This document shows, in pieces, positions 1,846 to 15,064 of a DNA stretch of 16,215 nucleotides (position 1 is its first letter; every line of letters begins with the position of its first letter). The stretch lies in the IMG/VR virus record IMGVR_UViG_3300032217_000984; one strand, 5' to 3'. Below the pieces are notes generated by a model. That model was not told the DNA's origin. It saw only the letters and a program-made list of their open reading frames with translations, and did no database searches. Origin of the DNA: a virus. The translations under genes and the position numbers were made by a program.

Positions 1846-2997
1846 ATGCCGCGCGTGGGATTCCTCTCGCGCATTTTCGGCTACTCGAACGCCGTGGTGG
1901 TCTACAACACCCCACCCGCGTCGGCACCTGTTGCCATCACGCAGATCCCTGCGGTGGTGCGCGCTATCCAGCTGATTTCCGCCGACATTGCGCGCCTGCC
2001 GATCAACATCGAACGCGAAGACGGCACCCTGGTGGATTCCCCTGTGGCGTCGCTCCTGAACCGGGAAGCCAGCCGCTGGCAGTCTTCCTTTGAGTTCCGA
2101 CGATACCTCACGTCCTGCGCGCTGAATGACGGTAACGGCATCGCCGTCATCCGCCGCGACAACAACGGAATGGTGGTCGAACTGCAGCCCGTGCCCATCG
2201 GCTCCGTGGTGGCCGAGCTGACCGAAGAGGGCGTTCAGTACCGAATCAACAACGTGGTGCTGACGCAGGATCAGGTGCTGCACGTTGGTGCGTTCCCCGA
2301 CCCGATGAACCCGGCGTGGTTCGTGTCGCCGCTGGATGCGTCGGCGTTCGCCATGCGCCTGGCAGCGGACCAAGAGGCAGCACATCGCGCACTGGTTGCC
2401 ACGGGAAGTACGGGCAAGATTGCAATCCGACACCCGGGCGCGCTGGCCGACGAATCCGTCGAAGCCATCCGCAACGCCTGGCAGTCGATGCACGCCACCG
2501 CTGACGGTGCCAGCCGCCCGCTGATCCTGCGGGAAGGCATGACTGCGGAACGCATCAGCCAGGAAACCAGCACCAGCAGCATCGATTCCCGGCGTTTCAG
2601 CGTGCAGGAAATCGGGCGCGCGTTCGGCGTGCCGCCCGAAATGCTGTTCCAGCAGGGCGGCGGCGCGCTGTCCAGCCAGGCGGAAACGGCGCGCGCCTAC
2701 GCCGACGGCGCCATCAGCGCCTGGGCAACGGCATGGGAAGCAGAACTTACGCGCAAGTTGTGCGCGCCTGGCGAGTACGTGACCATTGACACGCGCCCCA
2801 TCACGCGCGGCAGCCTGAAGGATCAGGGCACGGCATGGAGCAAGTTGGTGTTGGCTGGCATCGCCAGCCCGAACGACGCGCGCCTGGCCATCGGCCTGCC
2901 GCCGCTGGTTGGTTACGACACGCCGACGGTGTCCATGCCTGGCGGCGCAGCCGCTGCCGCGTTTGCACCCGACACGGAGGGCACGGGCAATGATTGA
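1846..2997 (+). CDS. Portal protein (HK97-family)
   Basis: 383-aa ORF between terminase and protease. The N-terminal AVVRAIQLISADIARLP, NDGNGIAVI and C-terminal SVQEIGRAFGVPPEML segments resemble conserved HK97-type portal blocks. Confidence 0.88.
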   Translation: MPRVGFLSRIFGYSNAVVVYNTPPASAPVAITQIPAVVRAIQLISADIARLPINIEREDGTLVDSPVASLLNREASRWQSSFEFRRYLTSCALNDGNGIAVIRRDNNGMVVELQPVPIGSVVAELTEEGVQYRINNVVLTQDQVLHVGAFPDPMNPAWFVSPLDASAFAMRLAADQEAAHRALVATGSTGKIAIRHPGALADESVEAIRNAWQSMHATADGASRPLILREGMTAERISQETSTSSIDSRRFSVQEIGRAFGVPPEMLFQQGGGALSSQAETARAYADGAISAWATAWEAELTRKLCAPGEYVTIDTRPITRGSLKDQGTAWSKLVLAGIASPNDARLAIGLPPLVGYDTPTVSMPGGAAAAAFAPDTEGTGND

Positions 2998-3514
2998 AAT
3001 TCGCACCGGGACGCTGCGCGCAGACGCTGGCAAGTTGGGCGGCTATGCCGCCATCTACAACGCGCCGAGCAAGCCGCTGACCATCCGTGGCCTGAACGGC
3101 GGCAAACCGTTCGTGGAACGCATCGCGCCCGGTGCATTCGATGGCATCGAAGGGCGCAACGTGTCGCTGCTCATTGGGCACGACCGCAGCCAGCTGCTGG
3201 CGAACAGTGCCTCCGGCTTGCTGTCGCTCCGTTCCGATGGCACTGGCCTGGCCTACGAAGTGACCCTGCCGGACACCCAGCGCGCCCGCGACGTGCGCGC
3301 GTTGGTGGAAGCAGGCGTCATGACGGAGATGTCTTTCGGTTTCTACGTGAAGTCTGACGCCTGGAATGGATCGGAACGCACCCTGCATTCCGTCGATCTC
3401 CGGGAGATTTCGATTATCGAAGCGGACGGCGCTGCATATCCGCAGACGAGTGCCGAAGCGCGAAACACCAACGCCGGAATCAACCGGCTCAAACTGCGGC
3501 TAAGGAGCGTTTGA
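2990..3514 (+). CDS. Prohead maturation protease (HK97 / peptidase S78-like)
   Basis: The internal ATG at 2990 overlaps the portal stop by 8 nt. Motifs FVERIAPGAF, LLIGHD and SFGF...LREISII match the HK97 prohead protease pattern. Position between portal and capsid also fits. Confidence 0.85.
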   Translation: MIEIRTGTLRADAGKLGGYAAIYNAPSKPLTIRGLNGGKPFVERIAPGAFDGIEGRNVSLLIGHDRSQLLANSASGLLSLRSDGTGLAYEVTLPDTQRARDVRALVEAGVMTEMSFGFYVKSDAWNGSERTLHSVDLREISIIEADGAAYPQTSAEARNTNAGINRLKLRLRSV

Positions 3515-3515
3515 A

Positions 3516-4742
3516 ATGAAGATTTCCGAGATGCATGAGAAGCGCAAGGCGCTTACCGCCGAGCGGGACACGATTCTGACCGCGTCCGAAATGACTGTCG
3601 AGCAGGAAGCGCGCGGCCACGAAGTCGCCAACGAACTGCAGAAGCTCGATGGCGAGATCCGCGCCGCGCAGATGCGCGAGCGTTTCGCGTCCTACAGCGC
3701 GATGGAGAAGGCCGTCGAAGACGGCAACAAGCGCAACACCGATTGGACCGCAACGACCGAGTACCGCGACCAGTGGATCAACTGGTGCCGTGGTGGCCGT
3801 GCGCCGGAAACCCGCGCCATCGACACGTCGTCGTCCAGCGGCGTGCTGGTCCCGAAGATCTACGAAGCCGGGATCCTGAAGTACCTGGAGCGGAACACCG
3901 TGGTCCGCAACCTGGCCGACCTGCGTACGGGCGTCAAGGGCAGCGTGACCATGCGCGTCAACACCCTGGAAACCGACGCGGCTACGTCGTCGTTCTGGAC
4001 CACCGAGTCCAGCAAGACGGCGACGGCCATTGACGGCGCGTGGGCCGAAGTCAACATGAACCCCGTCGGCGGTCTGCCGAAGTCGGAACTGACGCAGTGG
4101 GTTGTGCGGCAGTCGGATTTCGACGTTGAAACCGAAGTCATGGACAATTTGCAGCGGCAGATTGCCCGTGGTTTGGAGTACGGCTACACCATCGGCACCG
4201 GCAGCGATCAGCCCACCGGCCTGTTCCTGCAGAACGCTAATTTCAAGGGCCTGAGCACCGCCTACAGCGCGGCGCACGCCAGCGGTGCAGGTTGGGATGC
4301 TGCATTCACCGTGGCGCGCCTCACCGAGCTGCGCTACAAGACGCTGCCCGCTGAGTACTGGTCGTCCGCTGCGTGGATCATGTCGCAGGACGCGTACTAC
4401 GCCATCGCGCAGCTGGTCTCTGCGTCCGGTTCCAATGTGCCGCTGTTCGTGCCGTCGTCCGACGCTGGCATCACCAATGCGGCGCCGTTCACGCTGATGG
4501 GACGGCCGGTGTACATCGCACCGTACGCCCCGGGCCGTCAGACGGCAGCCGTGTCGAACAGCATCCCGCTCATGTTCGCCAACGTGTCCGAAGCGTTCGC
4601 CATCCGCGAGTGGGGCGGTGTGAATATGTTCCGCGACGATGTGACCACCCCAGGACTGGTCAAGTTCCAGGGCATGGTGTTCACCAACAGCAAGGTGATC
4701 CGGCCGAAGGCCGTCGCCGCGCTGCGCATCACCCTCACCTGA
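3516..4742 (+). CDS. Major capsid protein (HK97 fold) with N-terminal coiled-coil delta-like region
   Basis: 408-aa ORF with an AAGGAG RBS at 3502-3507. It has a charged helical N-terminus (EKRKALTAERD...) followed by a capsid-like core, and lies immediately after the protease. Confidence 0.9.
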   Translation: MKISEMHEKRKALTAERDTILTASEMTVEQEARGHEVANELQKLDGEIRAAQMRERFASYSAMEKAVEDGNKRNTDWTATTEYRDQWINWCRGGRAPETRAIDTSSSSGVLVPKIYEAGILKYLERNTVVRNLADLRTGVKGSVTMRVNTLETDAATSSFWTTESSKTATAIDGAWAEVNMNPVGGLPKSELTQWVVRQSDFDVETEVMDNLQRQIARGLEYGYTIGTGSDQPTGLFLQNANFKGLSTAYSAAHASGAGWDAAFTVARLTELRYKTLPAEYWSSAAWIMSQDAYYAIAQLVSASGSNVPLFVPSSDAGITNAAPFTLMGRPVYIAPYAPGRQTAAVSNSIPLMFANVSEAFAIREWGGVNMFRDDVTTPGLVKFQGMVFTNSKVIRPKAVAALRITLT

Positions 4743-7190: not shown

Positions 7191-7334
7191 ATGGATGCAG
7201 CACTATCCAACCACCTGACCAGTGAGGAACGCAGAGAACACCTGCTAGGCGTTATTGCCTGCGCGCTGACAGGGCAGCGGCCGCATCAACTGTTCCCATG
7301 GCTACGCACGGATCCGGGGGTTTTCAATGGCTGA
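7191..7334 (+). CDS. Possible gpT-like extension ORF of the tail chaperone (47 aa from ATG 7191; frame open from 7116)
   Basis: Hand translation gives MDAALSNHLTSEERREHLLGVIACALTGQRPHQLFPWLRTDPGVFNG*. It lies in the -1 frame relative to the chaperone, fills the otherwise empty 7168-7326 gap, and ends overlapping the tape-measure ATG (ATGGCTGA). It has no obvious RBS of its own. Confidence 0.3.
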   Translation: MDAALSNHLTSEERREHLLGVIACALTGQRPHQLFPWLRTDPGVFNG

Positions 7335-8031
7335 CAGGTCCATGAAGGCAGTGATTCGCGCAGAGGTTGACCCGCGTGGTGTTGTCAGCGGCGTAGCAGC
7401 AACCAACAAAGAACTGCAGAAGCTCAACAAAACTGCAGCCAGCGCGTCTACGTCGGCGGCTATCTCCGCTGGCATCAGCATGGCGCAGATGGGTATGTCT
7501 GCGCTGCAGCAGGTATTTGCGGCTGTTGAACGTCGTTTTGGCGAGCTGAACAACATCGCCAACAAATATTCCGCAGCAGCAGCCGGTGCGCGCATGGCCG
7601 CCGACGTGGCGATCATCCAGGACAATGTGCGTATTGCGAACGCATTGGCACCAGGCGCGATTCAGGCTTCTCAAGCGGAAGTTGATATCAAGGCAGGCGA
7701 AGCGGCGCGTATGCAACGCAACGCTGGTGCAGTCAACTCCGGCATGGGAGCTTTTGCGCGTACGAAGGGGAACCTTGGCGCCATCACGGACATGGGAACC
7801 GAGATCGCAGGTACAGCGTTGGCTGGAATCGAACAGTTGCTCGGCGGAGATCTATCCGGTTTCATGAAGACCAACGAAGCCGGTCGCGCCCAAATAGGAG
7901 AACTGTTTAACGCGCAGAACTACGCTTACGCCAATGAAACGCCAGGGCGGGGCATGGCTGGCGATACGCAGATGGCCGAGCAAACCGAACTGTTAAGGCA
8001 AATCCGAGACGGTCTGAGGGGTGGACGCTAA
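7327..8031 (+). CDS. Tape measure protein, unusually short (234 aa)
   Basis: Ala/Gly/Gln-rich and predicted helical, with small hydrophobic stretches. It sits directly after the chaperone pair and before the tail-tip genes. Confidence 0.6.
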   Translation: MADRSMKAVIRAEVDPRGVVSGVAATNKELQKLNKTAASASTSAAISAGISMAQMGMSALQQVFAAVERRFGELNNIANKYSAAAAGARMAADVAIIQDNVRIANALAPGAIQASQAEVDIKAGEAARMQRNAGAVNSGMGAFARTKGNLGAITDMGTEIAGTALAGIEQLLGGDLSGFMKTNEAGRAQIGELFNAQNYAYANETPGRGMAGDTQMAEQTELLRQIRDGLRGGR

Positions 8032-8948
8032 TGGGCATTGTGCAAGTCATCGAACGGGTAAACAGCCGAACATGGAATCTCCAGCAGAAAGGCACGGAAT
8101 GCAGTGTCACGTGCACATATTTGGCGAGCTGGCTTCCAAGCAGTGCCGGCGATCCATACCCAGGCGAAGGCACCATCTTTGTCGATTCAAACTTTCCGAA
8201 GCCAACCACTAGGGCTCCGGCAAGTCTGCACGCAAACGATGCTTACGTGAAACAGATGATTTGCCGAACGGTGACCATGGCGCCGGAAACATCAAGGCCA
8301 TACACCTGGCAAGTTCAGGCCACCTACACTAGTAATTTCAACCCGTATTCCACTGGTGTATATGCGCGAATAACGAAATCAGCCAGCGAACGCACGCTCG
8401 GCCAATACCGCGAATTTACCTCCATTCCAACCAACGGCACGGTTGCCTTCCCACCGGCCGACATGGGCGGCAACAAACTCGACCTCCACGGCACGCCAAG
8501 GCCGCTGTCGGTGTCACAAGAGACGATCACGCTGGAATATCTCCATGACCGTACGACCTCAGCGACCAATACTGTGGCCGATCCGGATTGGTACACCTTT
8601 GGCTTGGCGCAAGGAACGCGCAATTCGGTAAACATGTTTAATGGCGTTTACGCGCCTGGCTCATTGCTTTACAAGGGTTGCCAGGCAACGCTTGAACAGG
8701 AGTCGTGGAGACTGGTACACGTTTGGCTATTCGATAACTACCAGCACCTTGAGCAAATCACTTGCCCAAACCCAACCGGCCAACCAGCGCTTGCTGCCAC
8801 TGGTACGTTCGATGGCGTCACCGGATTCATGCAGGCGACAAAAGTCGGCTGGTATCAACGCTATCCAACGCTCAGAAATCACTTGTCGATGCTTCCTGCA
8901 AACATCCAGACTGAACTGACCAGCGCGTACCCGGCGGTAGCACCATGA
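8031..8948 (+). CDS. Tail-tip protein (distal tail / hub candidate), no recognised family
   Basis: 305-aa ORF with a TAATG overlap on the tape measure gene. Function is assigned by position only. GC content is lower than in the head module. Confidence 0.45.
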   Translation: MGIVQVIERVNSRTWNLQQKGTECSVTCTYLASWLPSSAGDPYPGEGTIFVDSNFPKPTTRAPASLHANDAYVKQMICRTVTMAPETSRPYTWQVQATYTSNFNPYSTGVYARITKSASERTLGQYREFTSIPTNGTVAFPPADMGGNKLDLHGTPRPLSVSQETITLEYLHDRTTSATNTVADPDWYTFGLAQGTRNSVNMFNGVYAPGSLLYKGCQATLEQESWRLVHVWLFDNYQHLEQITCPNPTGQPALAATGTFDGVTGFMQATKVGWYQRYPTLRNHLSMLPANIQTELTSAYPAVAP

Positions 8949-9469
8949 CATACATGGACCCAATATTTAGCCAGGGATTGATGGGTAAGGCCAACAGCCA
9001 CGTTTGCAATGCCTGGACAAACGCTGCTCGGTTTGCGCAGAGCAGTGCTGAAGCTGTTGATTGGGCGCAGCAGCAGGCAAGACGTCCGCTGGTGATGGCG
9101 CGCGCACTTTGTCAGATTACCAATGCAAGCGTCATTCCAGGAAAGGTGAACCAGTGGAATTACACCATCAGCCTCTGGCACGTTCCTCCTCCGTCAGGAA
9201 CCGGCGGATACTTCCCACCTGCCGATACGTGGTTCACCACAACGAAGTGCAAGAACCTGCGCGAGTACTGGAACGACATAACAAACGTGGACGGCATGAG
9301 CTTGAGCTCGCCACCTGCGTCAATTGGACCGGTCGGAAGCTTTTGGACTGGGACACATTGGACTACGTCAGAGCTTCGTGCTCATGCTGAAGTTTCCATT
9401 GTCTACGACACTTCCGGAGAAGCCTACTTTTACTTCGATCGTCCAAACCCCATGAGGTGTACCGAGTAA
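8945..9469 (+). CDS. Tail-tip protein, no recognised family
   Basis: 174-aa ORF with an ATGA overlap on the upstream gene. Trp/Thr-rich. Function is assigned by position only. Confidence 0.4.
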   Translation: MTYMDPIFSQGLMGKANSHVCNAWTNAARFAQSSAEAVDWAQQQARRPLVMARALCQITNASVIPGKVNQWNYTISLWHVPPPSGTGGYFPPADTWFTTTKCKNLREYWNDITNVDGMSLSSPPASIGPVGSFWTGTHWTTSELRAHAEVSIVYDTSGEAYFYFDRPNPMRCTE

Positions 9470-9515
9470 TGCCGAACCTTCAGCTTGCTACCTACATTGG
9501 AACGGAGGTGCTCCA

Positions 9516-10865
9516 GTGATCCAAAACATGATGCGCAAAGCGATGTTTGGTGAACCGTCGCTCAACGGCCCCAAACTGTACGGCAGCACTCGGGCATCCA
9601 CGTTTGTCAAGGACCTTGCTTCCGGCGCTGACAGCCTGGACGTCGTATTCATCGGCGATAGTAACACCATGTCGGCGGTCGCCGGTTCTTGGGGCTACCA
9701 CAACGGAATAAGCGCAGCAATGAACGCCAGGGGATGGGCTTGCTATGGAACGGCTGTCTACCCAACAATGACAGGATGGACGCCCGCCGGTGGTGCGTAT
9801 TCGCTCGGCGGATGGCAGAGCAATTGTTACCTGATGCAACCAACCGGCAACCTTGCCAGCGGAAACGCGTCGGGTGGAGGTACGGCATACCAAACGTGGA
9901 CGCCTGGATCAAATTGGACGCGATACGGATCGTACACAGCGTCCCCGCCAGCAAAGGATGATTGGGCTTACATCGCTTCCGGAACGTACTCGGACAACTA
10001 CAACGCGGTCGAACTGTTTGCAGCGCATCCGCTCAACTCCAATTCGCTCACGCTGCACCACCGAATCATCTACGGCACGTTCACCTTTGGTACTGGATCG
10101 TTTCGGGGCCGCACCCGTGCGTACAACGACGGTACGGTGTACGCAACCGGGGCTTCGCAATCGACGCTTGGCGGTTCGTACTCCGTCAATGCGTACGAAT
10201 ACTCGTTCACGCCGCAGGGCGTGTATCTGAATTCCTCATGGAGCGGACCGACAGCTACTGGACCGTGCGCCATCCTGTCTCACAGCATCTACTGCAAGCG
10301 CAAGGGGTGGTCTGTCACCAGCCACGGCTACATTACTGGCGGCGACAGCACCACGATTGCCAGCGTGATTACGGGGATTGGGAATACCCCTTTGCAGAAT
10401 CAACTGCAAGAGCTACGCGCCAGGCAGATTTCCGCGGGGGGAACGGGGCGAGTGTTGATCGTGGCACACTCCGGAATCAACGGTGCGGACACATCGACCA
10501 CCTGGACGACTGCCCATCAGAACATTTGGGACACCTACAAGGCTGCATGGTCTGCGCTCGGATTTCCTGCCAATGATCTTGCAATGGTTTCGTTTGTTGG
10601 TGTTCAGAGGAACTCCGCGGACACAAGCAACAATTCGGCAAGCCTTGCTGCTGTTCGTGACGGAGCGAAGACGTTTGGATTGCAGGCAAATGGGCTCACC
10701 GTTGCCCACATGCCGTCGATCATCACGTACTCCGAGCTGATCGGTCCACCGTATCTCTATCAGACGGGAACTACTGGCGACGCCCATCTGTCGGGCGGTT
10801 CCGGCAGCACGACCGACGGCTACCGGGAAGTGTCCGACCGTCTACTTACGGCGTTGCTGGCATGA
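9516..10865 (+). CDS. GDSL/SGNH-type esterase-like protein (candidate receptor-modifying tail fibre, or alternatively a lytic enzyme)
   Basis: GTG start 7 nt after GGAGG (9504-9508). Block I-like VVFIGDSNT (GDS at nt 9654-9662), block III-like VAHSGINGAD and a C-terminal GDAHL. The D-x-H spacing is not the canonical DxxH. Confidence 0.5.
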   Translation: MIQNMMRKAMFGEPSLNGPKLYGSTRASTFVKDLASGADSLDVVFIGDSNTMSAVAGSWGYHNGISAAMNARGWACYGTAVYPTMTGWTPAGGAYSLGGWQSNCYLMQPTGNLASGNASGGGTAYQTWTPGSNWTRYGSYTASPPAKDDWAYIASGTYSDNYNAVELFAAHPLNSNSLTLHHRIIYGTFTFGTGSFRGRTRAYNDGTVYATGASQSTLGGSYSVNAYEYSFTPQGVYLNSSWSGPTATGPCAILSHSIYCKRKGWSVTSHGYITGGDSTTIASVITGIGNTPLQNQLQELRARQISAGGTGRVLIVAHSGINGADTSTTWTTAHQNIWDTYKAAWSALGFPANDLAMVSFVGVQRNSADTSNNSASLAAVRDGAKTFGLQANGLTVAHMPSIITYSELIGPPYLYQTGTTGDAHLSGGSGSTTDGYREVSDRLLTALLA

Positions 10866-11167
10866 AGCTTGCTGCGGCCATCATCGCGCTGTCGCTCGCC
10901 GGTTGCACCAACCACACCGCGGCTATTGCCCATTCGGCCATTGACGCCCGCCAGGCGTTGGGGTCCGCCATCGTCCACGTAGACGCCGCGCGCCGCGACC
11001 TGGACACGCTGCAGGCGTCCGTGGACGAAGTATCAATGCACGTTGCTTTTGTTTCGGACGACGAGAACCAGATTTATGCCACGCTGCAGTACGTTTCCGT
11101 GGCGGCAATTGTCATCGGCGGCGCAGCCGCCCTATACACCATTCGGAATTGGATACCAATCCCATGA
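10862..11167 (+). CDS. Lipoprotein with C-terminal transmembrane helix (u-spanin-like topology; alternatively Llp/Cor-like exclusion lipoprotein)
   Basis: Signal peptide plus lipobox MKLAAAIIALSLAG|C. Helical middle region. C-terminal hydrophobic LQYVSVAAIVIGGAAALYTI followed by RNWIPIP. ATGA overlaps at both ends. Confidence 0.6.
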   Translation: MKLAAAIIALSLAGCTNHTAAIAHSAIDARQALGSAIVHVDAARRDLDTLQASVDEVSMHVAFVSDDENQIYATLQYVSVAAIVIGGAAALYTIRNWIPIP

Positions 11168-11298
11168 ACCTGGCACCATGGCAATACACGATATGGATGG
11201 CGTCCCTGCTGCTCGTCACCTTCGCGTCGGGGTGCAGCATCGGGTTGACGGCAGGCCGTAAGCAGAAAGTGAAGGCATCGAATGCTCGCAAGCGCTGA
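11164..11298 (+). CDS. 44-aa single-pass membrane (or small lipo-) protein, not in the supplied ORF track
   Basis: Hand translation gives MNLAPWQYTIWMASLLLVTFASGCSIGLTAGRKQKVKASNARKR*. Its ATG overlaps the upstream stop (ATGA). It has a hydrophobic core, then a basic tail, and ASGC is a weak lipobox. Confidence 0.45.
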   Translation: MNLAPWQYTIWMASLLLVTFASGCSIGLTAGRKQKVKASNARKR

Positions 11299-11395
11299 AA
11301 GTCTCCTGGGCAGTCTCGCATTCGCGGCTGCGATGGCCCTGTCCGGCCTGATCGCCGGATACCTGGTCTGCCGGCGGAGCAAGGAAACGAAGTGA
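11282..11395 (+). CDS. 37-aa single-pass membrane protein, not in the supplied ORF track
   Basis: Hand translation gives MLASAESLLGSLAFAAAMALSGLIAGYLVCRRSKETK*. It overlaps the upstream micro-ORF by 17 nt, and its stop overlaps the GTG of the next gene (GTGA). One TM helix plus a basic tail. Confidence 0.4.
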   Translation: MLASAESLLGSLAFAAAMALSGLIAGYLVCRRSKETK

Positions 11396-12219
11396 GCAGA
11401 AAACGCTGCTGCTGCGGAGGATCTCCACCACCGGCTTATCCGTGCCAGCCGTGCCCGTCTGGCGAAGGGCACGAATGGATCGTGCAAGTCATCACTGATG
11501 GCATCATTGGTGACAGCGCAGGCTATGGCGTTGTAAATGACATCGACTATTACCAATCATGTCTGGCCGGTGACTGCGGTCGCCGGATGTTTGTCAGGCG
11601 TGGCGGATCAAATACGGATCTATCGTTTTGCGATGAAGTGTGCGATTCCATCGTGGATAGTCCTGGTGCATCTGACGCTGGTGACCACACGATCAGATGG
11701 TCATTCTGTAGCGTGGTAAACCCTACGGACTTACCAGGTAGTCCGTACCTACCAGACATCCTCAACGACCAGGAGGGAGCCGTGACAATTGAAGCTGTGC
11801 TTCCAAACCGGCAGTGGGATTTCACCAATTGTGTACCTTTTGGTGGCGGCATCCCTGGAGAGGATTGCGCGACCATTATCAAAGTGTCTTTTACGTATTC
11901 CGATACGTTCACTTATCCGCAATGGGATGACGTAGGCGACGGTTGTTTCAGCACGACTCGCACCATCACCATGCCGACGCAAGTTTGGACTTGTTGGTAC
12001 GCACGCCGCGTCGCAGCTGGGCAGTTTTTTGCAGAGGGCACGTACTACCTGCTGCGTTGCGAATATCCAGCCGCGTACGACACAGTGGGCGGAAACCCGC
12101 CGTTCTACAAGTGCCGGATCGGCAACGGCGTGGTTTGTTCGTCCCAGCACGGCGTTTCAATATCACCACCGACCATATGGAAACCACCCGCCAACATCAA
12201 CCTGGTGCGCCTCTCCTGA
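11392..12219 (+). CDS. Cysteine-rich protein of unknown function (17 Cys in 275 aa; N-terminal RKRCCCGG)
   Basis: Long ORF coupled to the upstream membrane micro-ORFs. I recognise no family. Paired Cys spacings are CQPC, C..DC and C...C. Confidence 0.55.
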   Translation: MSRKRCCCGGSPPPAYPCQPCPSGEGHEWIVQVITDGIIGDSAGYGVVNDIDYYQSCLAGDCGRRMFVRRGGSNTDLSFCDEVCDSIVDSPGASDAGDHTIRWSFCSVVNPTDLPGSPYLPDILNDQEGAVTIEAVLPNRQWDFTNCVPFGGGIPGEDCATIIKVSFTYSDTFTYPQWDDVGDGCFSTTRTITMPTQVWTCWYARRVAAGQFFAEGTYYLLRCEYPAAYDTVGGNPPFYKCRIGNGVVCSSQHGVSISPPTIWKPPANINLVRLS

Positions 12220-12254
12220 CCCGCCTCCGCTACCGGTGGAAGGGCGAAGAGCAG

Positions 12255-12458
12255 ATGCGGTGCTTTCACATCGTGGAAGGCGAACCCGTGGCTGCCGATT
12301 GTCCGCCAAAGTTCACCGGCCTGGGCGACGTGATCGCCGACGGCACAAAGGCGCTCGGGGTACACCCGTGCGGCAAGTGCAAGAAACGCCAGGCGTGGCT
12401 GAACCGCTGGACGCCCGCCTGGCTGGCAGGTCTGATATCGCGGATTCGTTCCCGTTGA
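12255..12458 (+). CDS. 67-aa CxxC mini-protein with amphipathic/hydrophobic C-terminus
   Basis: Internal ATG 12255 of the 11943..12458 frame, preceded by GGAAGGGCGAAGAG. Sequence MRCFHIVEGEP...GLGDVIADGTKALGVHPCGKCKKRQAWLNRW. The upstream part of that frame overlaps the Cys-rich gene and looks non-coding. Confidence 0.45.
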   Translation: MRCFHIVEGEPVAADCPPKFTGLGDVIADGTKALGVHPCGKCKKRQAWLNRWTPAWLAGLISRIRSR

Positions 12459-12459
12459 A

Positions 12460-12858
12460 TTGTGGTGGATTGTGGTGCAGATTGACTACAATCCTGGAAT
12501 GAATCCAAGCATCCGGACGGCTATGGAAAGACGCGACGCCACCAGGGGCGAATGGTGGCTGGCGCGCATGGATACAGACCCGCCAGGCCAATGGACGCTG
12601 ACGGCAGACCCGGCTGGCCCGTGGGATTGGCGTTTCAAGGTGGGGTCTTGCAAGTCGCGCGCGGTGCAACGCCTGCGCGCAGCTGCAGATAGGGAAGCGA
12701 ATAACAGGCGCAGGTTACTGGCCACGCCTGAACACGCAAAAAAGTGTGTTACGGGGCAGGGAAATCTACTTGCAATTCCGGGACTGACCGATACTATCTC
12801 CGCCAAGCGCGGATTGCACCAGTTTGCGGTGGATGCTGATAACGTTGTCCCTGTTTAA
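12460..12858 (+). CDS. Hypothetical protein (start uncertain: TTG 12460, GTG 12472/12475 or ATG 12499)
   Basis: 132-aa ORF, Trp/Arg-rich. Last gene before the AT-richer intergenic gap. No family recognised. Confidence 0.4.
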   Translation: MWWIVVQIDYNPGMNPSIRTAMERRDATRGEWWLARMDTDPPGQWTLTADPAGPWDWRFKVGSCKSRAVQRLRAAADREANNRRRLLATPEHAKKCVTGQGNLLAIPGLTDTISAKRGLHQFAVDADNVVPV

Positions 12859-12932
12859 CAGATTGCAATTTATCATAACACGCATCCCACCACTTTAGCG
12901 AACCTTTCCGCGCTCCAGCCATTGGAGCGAAG
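12859..12932 (+). promoter_or_regulatory. Largest intergenic gap; candidate early promoter/operator region
   Basis: It is the AT-richest stretch of the window. It contains the ATTGCAAT palindrome (12862-12869), a TATCAT -10-like hexamer (12871-12876) with no well-spaced -35, and a GCTCCA-GCCAT-TGGAGC hairpin (12912-12928) covering the GGAG RBS of the RHH gene. Confidence 0.3.
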
Positions 12933-13148
12933 ATGAACGGACACGATGAAAGGAAGACGCGGAAGCGCCGACGGGCCGCAGTTCTTGCGGCAGAACCAGC
13001 GAAGCAGATCAGGATTGGGGAATCGGTCTATCAGTCGCTGATTGCCGAAGCGGTGGTTGCCAAGCGCAGCGTGCGTGGCCAGGCTGAATACCTGATCACG
13101 ATGGGCATCCAGCGCGCGCTAGAACTGGAAACGCGGGGTGCCGCGTGA
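12933..13148 (+). CDS. Ribbon-helix-helix (Arc/MetJ/CopG-like) DNA-binding protein
   Basis: 71 aa with a basic N-terminal arm (RKTRKRRR), then IRIGESVYQSLIAEAVVAKRSVRGQAEYLITMGI, which fits a strand-helix-helix pattern. First gene of the replication block. Confidence 0.55.
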   Translation: MNGHDERKTRKRRRAAVLAAEPAKQIRIGESVYQSLIAEAVVAKRSVRGQAEYLITMGIQRALELETRGAA

Positions 13149-13918
13149 GTGCCATCCAGTTGCACAGCCCGATGGAACTGCACACCCGCAACCAGCAGGC
13201 AATCACTGCCGTGCGGGAGGTGGTGCAGACCCACTACATGAACCGCATCCAGGGGCGCGCCTACCTCATGGTGGCAGGGGCGCAGGCTATTGCCACCGCC
13301 CTGGGCTACACGACGGGCATCGAATCGGTGCGGCATATTCCGGCCACCGATGACCTGCCGGGCTACTGGGAAGCCACCGCCACCGTCATGCAGTCGGGGC
13401 AGGTGGTCGGGCGTGGCGTCGCAGCTGTGTTCGACGACGAACGCCCGTGGAACACCCGCCCACACTTCGCACGCCAGGCGATGGCGCAGACCCGCGCAAC
13501 CGGCCGAGCGTTGAAGGGCGTCATGGGCTGGGCGTGCGCCATGATCGGCGCAGAAACGTCACTGGCTGAGGAGATGCCGCAGGAAGGCGCTACGGTGCCC
13601 CAGGATGGCACGGAAGGCGTCAAGCGCATTCCGGCCCGTCCGGCTGCTCTGAAAGTGTCTAAAGGCAATGCTGGGGCGACACGCGAGATTCGCGGAATTT
13701 GTGCGGGAGTCAAGGAACTGACCAGCAAGGCCGGGAAGCCGTACTGGCGAATTGCCTTGGAGGGGGAACCCGGCAAGCCGGACCCCGAGTGGACTTCCTT
13801 TAAGCCGGTGCCGGACATGGCTGGCCGCATGGTCAAGGTGGTGCTGGAATCGAAGGTCAACGCGAAAGGGGAGTCTGGCGACATTGCCCTGGACGTGATT
13901 GATTTGGAGGTTGACTGA
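13145..13918 (+). CDS. Possible single-strand annealing / recombination protein (RecT/ERF-like motif) with C-terminal OB-like domain
   Basis: The FARQAMAQTRATGRALKGV segment resembles the conserved helix of phage annealases (compare the RecT AMAKKTAIRRLFK-type motif). A nuclease gene follows. This is a weak, motif-level call. Confidence 0.3.
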   Translation: MSAIQLHSPMELHTRNQQAITAVREVVQTHYMNRIQGRAYLMVAGAQAIATALGYTTGIESVRHIPATDDLPGYWEATATVMQSGQVVGRGVAAVFDDERPWNTRPHFARQAMAQTRATGRALKGVMGWACAMIGAETSLAEEMPQEGATVPQDGTEGVKRIPARPAALKVSKGNAGATREIRGICAGVKELTSKAGKPYWRIALEGEPGKPDPEWTSFKPVPDMAGRMVKVVLESKVNAKGESGDIALDVIDLEVD

Positions 13919-14496
13919 TGCGGTGGACGCCTGAATACGTGCTAGACGGCGCGGATCAGGTGTATTGCCGCACCACGGCGACGAATCGCCACGCGGTGCG
14001 TCGGGCTTCCTACTTGGCTGATCGCGGAGTGACGCGTCAGTGGAAGACGGAAGGCGAGCAGCTGCGCGTTGATTTCGTCGGCGTCGGCGGTGAATTGTGC
14101 GTCCGAAAGTGCTTGGAAATGCCACAGCAGTGGGATGACCGGGAAACCGAAGGGCGACACGACCTGATCTACCAGGGCCACCGCATCGACGTGAAGACAA
14201 CCACCAATTCCGATCCTTGGCTGATCGTGCGGAAGACGGCGTTGCACGTGGACGCCTATGTGCTGGTGAATTACTGCGATGGACGGTTTAGGGTCTGCGG
14301 TTGGCAGACTGAAAGAATGGTCAAAAGTGAAGAGAACACCTGGAAGTGGGAACACGCCTACACCCTCAAAGAGCAGGCGCTTCGATGCATCACAGAATTG
14401 CGAGAGTGGGCAGGGGCGGATCCACCCAGGGCAGATATTTGCCCTGGGGGCTGCCTTGACGCCTACCGAAAGGTACGTGGCGATTGCGCTGGCTGA
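13918..14496 (+). CDS. PD-(D/E)xK superfamily nuclease
   Basis: GVGGELCV ... HDLIY ... IDVKT gives the E / D / (D/E)xK arrangement of restriction-endonuclease-fold nucleases. TGATG overlap with the upstream gene. Confidence 0.5.
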   Translation: MRWTPEYVLDGADQVYCRTTATNRHAVRRASYLADRGVTRQWKTEGEQLRVDFVGVGGELCVRKCLEMPQQWDDRETEGRHDLIYQGHRIDVKTTTNSDPWLIVRKTALHVDAYVLVNYCDGRFRVCGWQTERMVKSEENTWKWEHAYTLKEQALRCITELREWAGADPPRADICPGGCLDAYRKVRGDCAG

Positions 14497-15064
14497 CTAT
14501 GGGCAGCGAATCCACCCGAGCTTGGCGCACCTTTGCGCAAAGACGGGGCTGCACCGCAACACACTCAGCCGTGCAATTTGCTCCATGAGGGCGAAAGGCA
14601 TAATCAGGACTTACGGCACCGGCAAGGCGCTAACGTACACCCTTGATATGCACTTTAAAGGTGACGGTACCGTCACCTTAAAGGGTACGCACCATCACCT
14701 TAAAGGTGACGCACCGTCACCTTTAAAGGTACGGGATCCTAACTACCAAAGAACTACTAAAGAACCACCCGCGGCTGACGCCGCAAATGGGGGGCGGGAA
14801 GGGTTCGATGAATTGGTCCAAAGGATCCGAGTCCGTGACCCGAGAGCCGACATTGACGCGCAGCGCCGCGTGTGTTCGCGGGTGATGGAGCAGCATGGAC
14901 TTGCCAAGGAAGACATTCCGCCAGCGTGGCGGCTGTTGTGCCTGAACTGGGCGCGCACTGGCAACGCGCCGTACGACACTTTGCAACGCATCGTGACCAG
15001 CCTGGAGGGCGCGCGCGACGTTCGTGCCGTCGTCCTGCACAAGATCAAGGGGGTGGCAGCATGA
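14456..15064 (+). CDS. Replication initiator, lambda-O-like (N-terminal winged-HTH, iteron-containing linker, C-terminal domain)
   Basis: LTPTERYVAIALADYG....PSLAHLCAKTGLHRNTLSRAICSMRAKGII is HTH-like. The start is uncertain: TTG 14456 after GGGGG, or GTG 14477 after GAAAGG. ATG 14279 would overlap the nuclease gene by 218 nt and encodes an R/S/G-rich junk-like peptide. Confidence 0.55.
   Translation: MTPTERYVAIALADYGQRIHPSLAHLCAKTGLHRNTLSRAICSMRAKGIIRTYGTGKALTYTLDMHFKGDGTVTLKGTHHHLKGDAPSPLKVRDPNYQRTTKEPPAADAANGGREGFDELVQRIRVRDPRADIDAQRRVCSRVMEQHGLAKEDIPPAWRLLCLNWARTGNAPYDTLQRIVTSLEGARDVRAVVLHKIKGVAA
14651..14732. repeat. Candidate origin of replication: four dyad-symmetric iterons (consensus about TCACCTT(T)AAAGGTGAC) spaced 22-23 bp apart
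   Basis: Copies lie at 14651-14665, 14672-14688, 14694-14710 and 14716-14732. A perfect 18-bp palindrome GGTGACGGTACCGTCACC lies at 14660-14677. All are inside the initiator ORF. Confidence 0.7.
14741..14765. repeat. Tandem 11-mer AACTAC(C/T)AAAG x2.3, AT-richer; candidate DNA-unwinding element next to the iterons
   Basis: AACTACCAAAG (14741-14751), AACTACTAAAG (14752-14762), then AAC. It begins 9 bp after the last iteron. Confidence 0.45.

Follow-up and report, generated by a model that had tools for sequence, protein, structure and literature searches.

A small phage lipoprotein with a predicted coiled coil and unimolecular-spanin topology in a conserved three-gene membrane module, a candidate lysis module, of 16-kb tailed phages

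Unimolecular spanins (u-spanins) combine a lipoprotein signal with a transmembrane (TM) helix at the C terminus in one small phage protein, and to our knowledge they are known almost solely from one tested example, gp11 of phage T1. Several other systems share single traits with them. Lpp, Braun's lipoprotein of Escherichia coli, is a small lipoprotein that has its lipid end in the outer membrane and, once mature, consists of little more than one coiled coil. The lambda proteins Rz and Rz1 form a coiled coil in the periplasm that is attached to both membranes, and T5 Llp and the Cor proteins of phi80, N15, and T1 are small phage lipoproteins encoded next to a receptor-binding gene. The 58 published u-spanins fall into 13 families, with periplasmic parts of 60 to 149 amino acids (aa) and no periplasmic Cys in any of them; SIO1 (60 aa) and P12053L (61 aa) mark the low end of these lengths, and the PB1 family is about 40% helical (PMC6139136, Kongari et al. 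2018). Here, these systems are compared with a lipoprotein gene at positions 10862-11167 of virus record IMGVR_UViG_3300032217_000984, the whole analyzed stretch of 16,215 nucleotides being referred to as the window.

The open reading frame (ORF) at 10862-11167 on the plus strand translates to a protein of 101 aa. Tentatively, but in preference to the other readings considered below, this protein is interpreted from its sequence as a member of a new family of Lpp-like coiled-coil lipoproteins with u-spanin topology, encoded within a three-gene membrane module that may serve lysis. The parts of the gene are as follows.

10862..10903, plus strand: predicted signal peptide, residues 1 to 14; variable in sequence yet hydrophobic in relatives
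10904..10906, plus strand: Cys15, at which, by a PS51257-type rule, lipidation is predicted and the mature protein would begin; invariant in alignments A1 and A3
10916..11053, plus strand: predicted periplasmic coiled coil, residues 19 to 64, indicated by a periodicity test, an AlphaFold2 (AF2) model of low confidence, and the ratio of nonsynonymous to synonymous differences (pN/pS)
11054..11089, plus strand: juxtamembrane linker, residues 65 to 76, with the motif S-D-D-E/Q-N-P-I-Y, indicated by conservation and by an AF2 helix break at residues 65 to 70
11090..11143, plus strand: predicted C-terminal TM helix, residues 77 to 94, with edges at Y77 and Y92, indicated by hydropathy and by hydrophobicity kept in relatives
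11144..11167, plus strand: short predicted cytoplasmic tail (R/K-N-W...) and stop codon, the stop overlapping the next start in an ATGA at 11164

The N terminus consists of M-K, an 11-residue hydrophobic core, and L-A-G-C with the Cys at position 15, and it matches PROSITE pattern PS51257 (K2, an uncharged h-region, A-G-C, and Cys at position 15); the lipoprotein signal was called by pattern matching alone. When all start codons on both strands of the window were scanned, three ORFs matched a pattern of this type, and a truly hydrophobic h-region was present only in the ORF at 10862-11167. The residue following Cys15 (position +2) is Thr, and among relatives this position is occupied by Thr, Ala, Val, or Ser and never by Asp. 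At the other end of the protein, residues 69 to 94 form an uncharged stretch, the core of which (residues 77 to 94, 18 residues) has a mean Kyte-Doolittle hydropathy of 1.9 to 2.1 and is followed by the R/K-N-W tail. The part between the two predicted anchors, that is, the periplasmic domain, is about 62 aa long. Cys15 is the only Cys of the mature protein in the window, a second Cys is conserved in neither close nor distant relatives, and the one extra Cys of homologue P0002 lies within the predicted membrane helix, outside the periplasmic part.

The protein thus has a lipoprotein signal, a C-terminal TM segment, no periplasmic Cys, and a periplasmic length within the 60 to 149 aa of published u-spanins, and in all of these it agrees with the sequence-level criteria by which u-spanins, with T1 gp11 as their prototype, were called (PMC6139136); the PB1 family provides a precedent for a helical domain. 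An earlier note on this DNA had proposed the same topology from a lipobox and a C-terminal hydrophobic anchor. The topology is retained in relatives and under selection, and the sequence continues to support it, with a spanin function still a candidate; the C-terminal hydrophobic segment was recovered at the residues given above. The lipobox is likewise present, although the hexamer L-S-L-A-G-C occupies residues 10 to 15 rather than the residues 11 to 15 given in that note.

The predicted periplasmic domain is dominated by an unbroken heptad register extending over residues 19 to 64 (6.5 heptads), with I22, A29, A36, A43, L50, V57, and V64 at a positions and A26, L33, V40, L47, V54, and V61 at d positions. 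Alignment-averaged hydrophobicity peaked at periods of 3.45 to 3.5 and 2.3 to 2.35 residues, which correspond to the 7/2 and 7/3 heptad harmonics, and the power at period 3.5 was matched by 0.3% of shuffles for alignment A3 and 2.7% for alignment A1. An AF2 monomer model contained a helix at residues 2 to 64, a break at residues 65 to 70, and a second helix at residues 71 to 97, with a predicted local distance difference test (pLDDT) score of just 58. A three-copy complex prediction (mature residues 16 to 101, alignment A1) scored 0.01, a value that counts neither for nor against oligomerization. A profile search of PDB sequences returned weak coiled-coil look-alikes, among them reovirus sigma-1, trimeric autotransporters, and paramyxovirus F heptad repeats; the last (E value of 0.004 to 0.01) were considered as homologues and rejected, the matches being read as coiled-coil composition. 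Modeled as a coiled coil, the segment would form a rod of about 46 residues that is about 7 nm long and carries the lipid and the membrane helix on its two ends. Because the heptad is unbroken from residue 19 to residue 64, the lipid anchor and the TM helix would lie at opposite ends of this rod, an arrangement that fits two membranes better than one.

In its small size, lipoprotein signal, mature coiled coil of about 50 residues, and alanine-rich a/d core, the protein resembles Lpp of E. coli. It differs from Lpp in being phage encoded and in carrying a C-terminal TM helix instead of the Lys that is cross-linked to peptidoglycan, and by analogy it could be described as, in effect, a Braun's lipoprotein in which a TM helix replaces the peptidoglycan-linked lysine. 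Homology to Lpp was not found, as there was no match to Pfam family LPP and Lpp was absent from the PDB profile matches. The single predicted helical coiled coil also sets the periplasmic domain apart from that of T1 gp11, which is predicted to be mainly beta; with this all-helical prediction and no PHROG or tblastn match, membership in the T1 gp11 sequence family was not found.

A word-indexed search recovered 35 close homologues of the lipoprotein; a full profile search across 1.84 billion representatives yielded only about 10 more, these being distant (31 to 46% identity). These approximately 45 relatives all come from 16-kb uncultured phages, and the architecture is kept from 96% down to 31% identity. 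The G-C of the lipobox is invariant in close and distant homologues, all substitutions at positions -3 and -2 are ones that a lipobox allows (L/M/V/F and A/S/T/G/C, respectively), and the start codon lies exactly 14 codons ahead of the Cys in every related locus read. The C-terminal segment stays hydrophobic between the near-invariant tyrosines Y77 and Y92, which are 15 residues apart. Residues 15 to 44, the N-terminal half of the periplasmic part, are nearly invariant; in the linker, S65 and D66 are invariant in alignment A1 and D66 is near-invariant in alignment A3. The lipoprotein gene is under purifying selection. Pairwise pN/pS was 0.30 for the whole gene and 0.13 for residues 15 to 44 at a synonymous divergence (pS) of 0.41, and conservation therefore acts at the protein level, beyond what recent transfer would leave.

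Searches of curated families and cultured phages returned no relatives. Neither the lipoprotein nor either of the two small proteins encoded after it had a significant match in Pfam, PHROGs, or PADLOC, and no PHROG matched the lipoprotein below an E value of 0.01. Only chance matches (E value of 2 or more) were obtained by tblastn of the lipoprotein against 50,697 phage records, and blastn of positions 7300-12300 against phages gave no match. No copy was found among the 185,579 species genomes scanned, and matches in the ESM Atlas were to unnamed viral clusters only. By sequence comparison, the family is without a homologue in curated families or cultured phages and is confined to a group of tiny uncultured phages.

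The window represents a complete phage genome of about 16.2 kb. Its packaging and head genes are of HK97 type (terminase, portal, protease, and capsid) and are followed by a short tail module and then a replication module, with all genes on one strand; related contigs cluster at 15.3 to 16.7 kb. The genes surrounding the lipoprotein gene are listed below.

9516..10865, plus strand: variable upstream gene for a protein of 449 aa with a GDSL/SGNH-like motif; a cassette of receptor-binding type, unrelated genes occupying this slot in most relatives
11164..11298, plus strand: s44, a 44-aa single-TM peptide predicted to be N-out/C-in; directly after the lipoprotein gene wherever the contig reaches, distant relatives included
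11282..11395, plus strand: s37, a 37-aa single-TM peptide predicted to be N-out/C-in, with small-xxx-small motifs and a conserved Cys immediately before a basic tail
11392..12219, plus strand: variable downstream gene for the Cys-led protein (275 aa, N terminus M-S-R-K-R-C-C-C); invariably in fourth place in the block, with its body swapped among relatives

ATGA overlaps occur at both ends of the lipoprotein gene, joining the upstream stop to its start at 10862-10865, as the earlier note had reported, and its own stop to the start of s44 at 11164. A start/stop overlap with whichever gene lies upstream is kept across loci. In all related loci, including the most distant, the order is a variable tail gene, the lipoprotein gene, two genes encoding about 44 and about 37 aa, respectively, and a gene for a protein beginning S-R-K/R-R-C-C-C. 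That the lipoprotein gene directly follows the upstream gene was also borne out, but the description of the upstream gene as the last tail protein is not secure, because the variable Cys-led protein, possibly a tail or adhesin protein, is encoded after the trio formed by the lipoprotein, s44, and s37.

The members of this translationally coupled trio are the only window proteins with membrane-grade hydrophobic segments, and no other true lipobox ORF, signal-anchor-release (SAR) or signal-peptide enzyme, or two-component spanin pair was found in the window. Any holin-type function must therefore sit in the trio, as its members are the only membrane proteins of the genome. s44 has an invariant F-x-x-G-C-x-x-G inside its helix and a tail charge of about +7, and s37 has a weak, subthreshold match to the DUF883_C glycine zipper. 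The possibility that s44 is a second lipoprotein (an outer-membrane spanin, or o-spanin) was considered and rejected: it has no N-terminal charge, its +7 tail should stay cytoplasmic, and the motif reads as G-x-x-x-G helix packing.

The three genes are the best conserved of the phage group. In an identity matrix, they remained at about 70 to 76% identity where the capsid, portal, and terminase were at 24 to 34% and the tape measure was unrecognizable. The lipoprotein is 91 to 96% identical among relatives in which the upstream receptor-binding gene has been replaced by unrelated cassettes; in locus L004, for example, the head genes are 91 to 100% identical and the lipoprotein is 96% identical, while the upstream gene is without any similarity. 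In the upstream replacements, Gly_rich_2, CBM_4_9, or Laminin_G_3 domains were identified, or else a weak GDSL match, and from their sequences the genes in this slot look like receptor-binding cassettes. Swapped cassettes were seen in loci L004, L005, L008, L010, L017, L027, and L034; a small gene of 70 to 116 aa often lies behind the cassette, with the recombination joint exactly at the start of the lipoprotein gene. To judge from fixed order, high identity, and low pN/pS, the trio appears to behave like essential genes.

Under the favored u-spanin-like reading, the kept overlaps with the upstream gene suggest late expression, so that the protein would be made late, coupled to tail genes. We infer that the 14-residue signal peptide would be cut and Cys15 lipidated and that the lipid end, in a protein with no Asp at +2, would be passed to the outer membrane, with helix 77-94 remaining in the inner membrane. 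The approximately 62 residues between the anchors would reach across only when unfolded (about 21 nm extended). Folding and oligomerization into a 6.5-heptad, Lpp-like coiled coil of about 7 nm would then draw the membranes together, and after the wall gives way, tension would disrupt or fuse the outer membrane. s44 and s37, with their N-out/C-in helices and basic tails, would be the likely holin-type partners. The membrane-approach step is taken from the model for Rz/Rz1 (PMC6139136). In contrast to Rz/Rz1, the protein is one chain with a single short helix, has no linker or hairpin, and lacks cysteines for intermolecular disulfides.

For host lysis by the known route, a tailed phage requires a minimum of one membrane lysis protein, and a 16-kb genome has little spare room. 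A lysis role is favored because the trio is the only place for such a protein and because the geometry of the rod suits two membranes. As in known u-spanins, the phage gene is coupled to late genes and lies beside genes for small holin-like membrane proteins. Were the interpretation correct, the protein would be a minimal, all-helical u-spanin with about 85 mature residues, one coiled coil, and very strong conservation, and it would offer an unusually tractable model for the coupling of two membranes by a single chain. Across a widespread group of the smallest known HK97-type tailed phages, moreover, no genes other than the trio are candidates for lysis.

Several observations weigh against a spanin role. 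In sequence, spanins usually rank with the most diverse genes of phages, and the near invariance of residues 15 to 44 is more suggestive of a surface that binds a specific partner. No sequence similarity to known spanins was seen in PHROGs or the 50,697 phage records, the periplasmic length is at the very bottom of the published range, and the gene precedes the holin-like genes instead of closing a cassette and sits between two variable adhesin-like cassettes. The distance between the inner and outer membranes of E. coli is about 30 nm (PMC8824477), whereas the folded rod (about 7 nm) with its linkers would reach at most about 12 nm. Because the folded protein is too short, bridging would be possible only if it were exported unfolded, at about 21 nm, and then contracted.

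A further point against a spanin role is that a muralytic enzyme was recognizable neither in the window nor in the complete relatives in Pfam and PHROG scans, so that the block is without the endolysin by which a canonical lysis cassette is known. Pfam searches with all window ORFs, 10 upstream cassettes, 10 small or tail-tip genes, and 10 Cys-led proteins yielded no endolysin, and in the complete relatives L001 and L002 neither an endolysin, of SAR type or otherwise, nor a two-component spanin was recognizable. The conserved 174-aa and 305-aa tail-tip proteins yielded nothing when compared with PDB by profile search. The 174-aa tail-tip protein (positions 8945-9469) was considered as a lysin and rejected on the basis of its predicted fold: apart from its first 50 residues, which were of low confidence, its AF2 model contained a C-terminal oligonucleotide/oligosaccharide-binding (OB)-like beta barrel (pLDDT of 75 to 89), and the model had no match among PDB structures. 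Finally, related phage-sized contigs were binned with metagenome-assembled genomes (MAGs) of both Pseudomonadota and Actinomycetota, and a spanin would be excluded if the host were monoderm.

The alternative that survives best, doubtful but not far-fetched, is that the lipoprotein is a subunit of a dedicated, nonspanin inner-membrane complex with s44 and s37. Such a complex might be a holin with its regulator or antiholin, the coiled coil sensing or timing triggering, or a platform for the Cys-led protein encoded next, and the lipid anchor would stay in or return to the same membrane or merely tether the complex. The co-conservation, overlap, and fixed order of the three genes at all levels of divergence agree with such a role, as do the three predicted N-out/C-in helices with their short basic tails, and the near-invariant residues 15 to 44 and S-D-D motif suggest specific protein contacts. 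The conserved cysteines at the predicted cytoplasmic face of s44 and s37, followed by a protein that starts R-K-R-C-C-C, point the same way. However, a heptad register that continues over 46 residues and has an anchor at either end would be awkward in one membrane, no family member has an Asp at +2 or another known retention signal, and no match to a known holin or antiholin family was obtained in PHROG and Pfam searches.

The cysteines recur within a short interval. In 11164-11420, conserved cysteines lie at or near the predicted cytoplasmic membrane face in three successive proteins, as the G-C in the s44 helix, the Cys before the s37 basic tail, and the R-K-R-C-C-C that opens the next protein, and the pattern is kept in relatives at 31 to 46% identity. 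It could represent a shared metal site or a tethering point. In three relatives (L004 at about 9647, L007 at about 9259, and L011 at about 10373), the s37 frame has a short N-terminal duplication, L-A-S-V-E-L-A-S-A-E-S.

The position of the gene directly after a receptor-binding-type gene is shared with T5 Llp and with Cor of phi80, N15, and T1, and the lipoprotein could in principle protect progeny or exclude superinfecting phages by blocking a conserved envelope component. Its near-invariant lipid-proximal segment would be suited to contacting a conserved outer-membrane protein from the periplasmic side; Llp binds FhuA and is made shortly after infection (PMC9586334; bioRxiv 10.64898/2026.03.26.714494). 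Whereas Llp is early, the gene described here is coupled to late structural genes, and its product has a coiled coil and a TM anchor, the latter absent from Llp and Cor. No similarity to proteins of T5, T1, phi80, or N15 was found in the cultured-phage collection, PADLOC gave no match, and accessory exclusion genes are rarely the most conserved, universal genes of a 16-kb genome. A blocker of the Cor/Llp type is further weakened because the lipoprotein does not covary with the adjacent receptor-binding gene, staying 91 to 96% identical where that gene is swapped (96% in L004), and it is still 72% identical where the tape measure is unrecognizable. The earlier note had held that the sequence could not separate a spanin from a receptor blocker; the comparative data shift the odds against the blocker, which is now improbable and survives only as a blocker of some conserved secondary receptor.

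It is likewise unlikely, though not negligibly so, that the host is monoderm, such as a freshwater actinobacterium, and that the coiled coil is pinned to a single membrane by both lipid and helix, acting, for example, as a holin accessory or in interference with cell wall synthesis. A spanin would be unneeded in such a host, and an endolysin family typical of either host type was not seen. Two of the five closest phage-sized relatives were in Actinomycetota bins, one of them Rhodoglobus, and the Gly_rich_2 and lectin-type fiber cassettes of relatives would be compatible with such hosts. The other three were in Pseudomonadota bins, however, and binning of free phage contigs is unreliable. The nearest cultured-phage portals, at only 26 to 29% identity, are from Brucella and Burkholderia phages, which also argues against a monoderm host. 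Signal peptides of 14 residues are short for Gram-positive lipoproteins, and the opposite-end anchors on a straight rod would suit two membranes better.

The least likely view considered is that these 16-kb tailed phages have no endolysin at all and that the trio makes up a full lysis system that works without one. The inner membrane would be breached, or wall synthesis poisoned, by the small peptides, in the manner of the single-gene lysis proteins of microviruses and leviviruses, and the coiled coil with its lipid and helix anchors would act as a zipper between the inner and outer membranes; such a system would be the first in a tailed double-stranded DNA phage.

Habitat and host were approached through related sequences. 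One strong metagenome match was in an unspecified metagenome, with weaker matches in freshwater, lake-water, and viral metagenomes, and a freshwater or lake habitat is tentatively suggested; no RNA data set was listed among the matches to this stretch. The five phage-sized contigs in MAG bins (L036-L040, 2.6 to 15.7 kb) were distributed over at least three phyla, and bins containing portal relatives were assigned to Hyphomicrobiaceae, Pseudomonadota, Gammaproteobacteria, Actinomycetota, and Rhodoglobus. These look like misbinned free phage genomes, and the bin taxonomy is not to be read as host. In 600 genomes of two candidate host families searched at the DNA level, the only matches were short and at chance level, none of them of spacer grade. 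The nearest cultured-phage capsids and portals, at 23 to 29% identity, came from phages with mixed hosts. A scan of positions 9000-14500 for promoters and terminators returned fewer sites than in shuffled sequences.

Two minor features of the genome were noted outside the module. The protease and capsid ORFs are separate in the window (2909-4742), unlike in one lineage of relatives (L001, 14098-15684; L002, 2383-3969), where a single 528-aa gene encodes S78 protease and HK97 capsid protein as a fusion. Downstream of the Cys-led protein, positions 12258-12458 encode a 66-aa CxxC protein with a Trp-rich, strongly cationic amphipathic end (K-K-R-Q-A-W-L-N-R-W...R-I-R-S-R), a close homologue of which was seen only in L004; it recalls gp28 of phage phiKT, a cationic peptide that disrupts the outer membrane.

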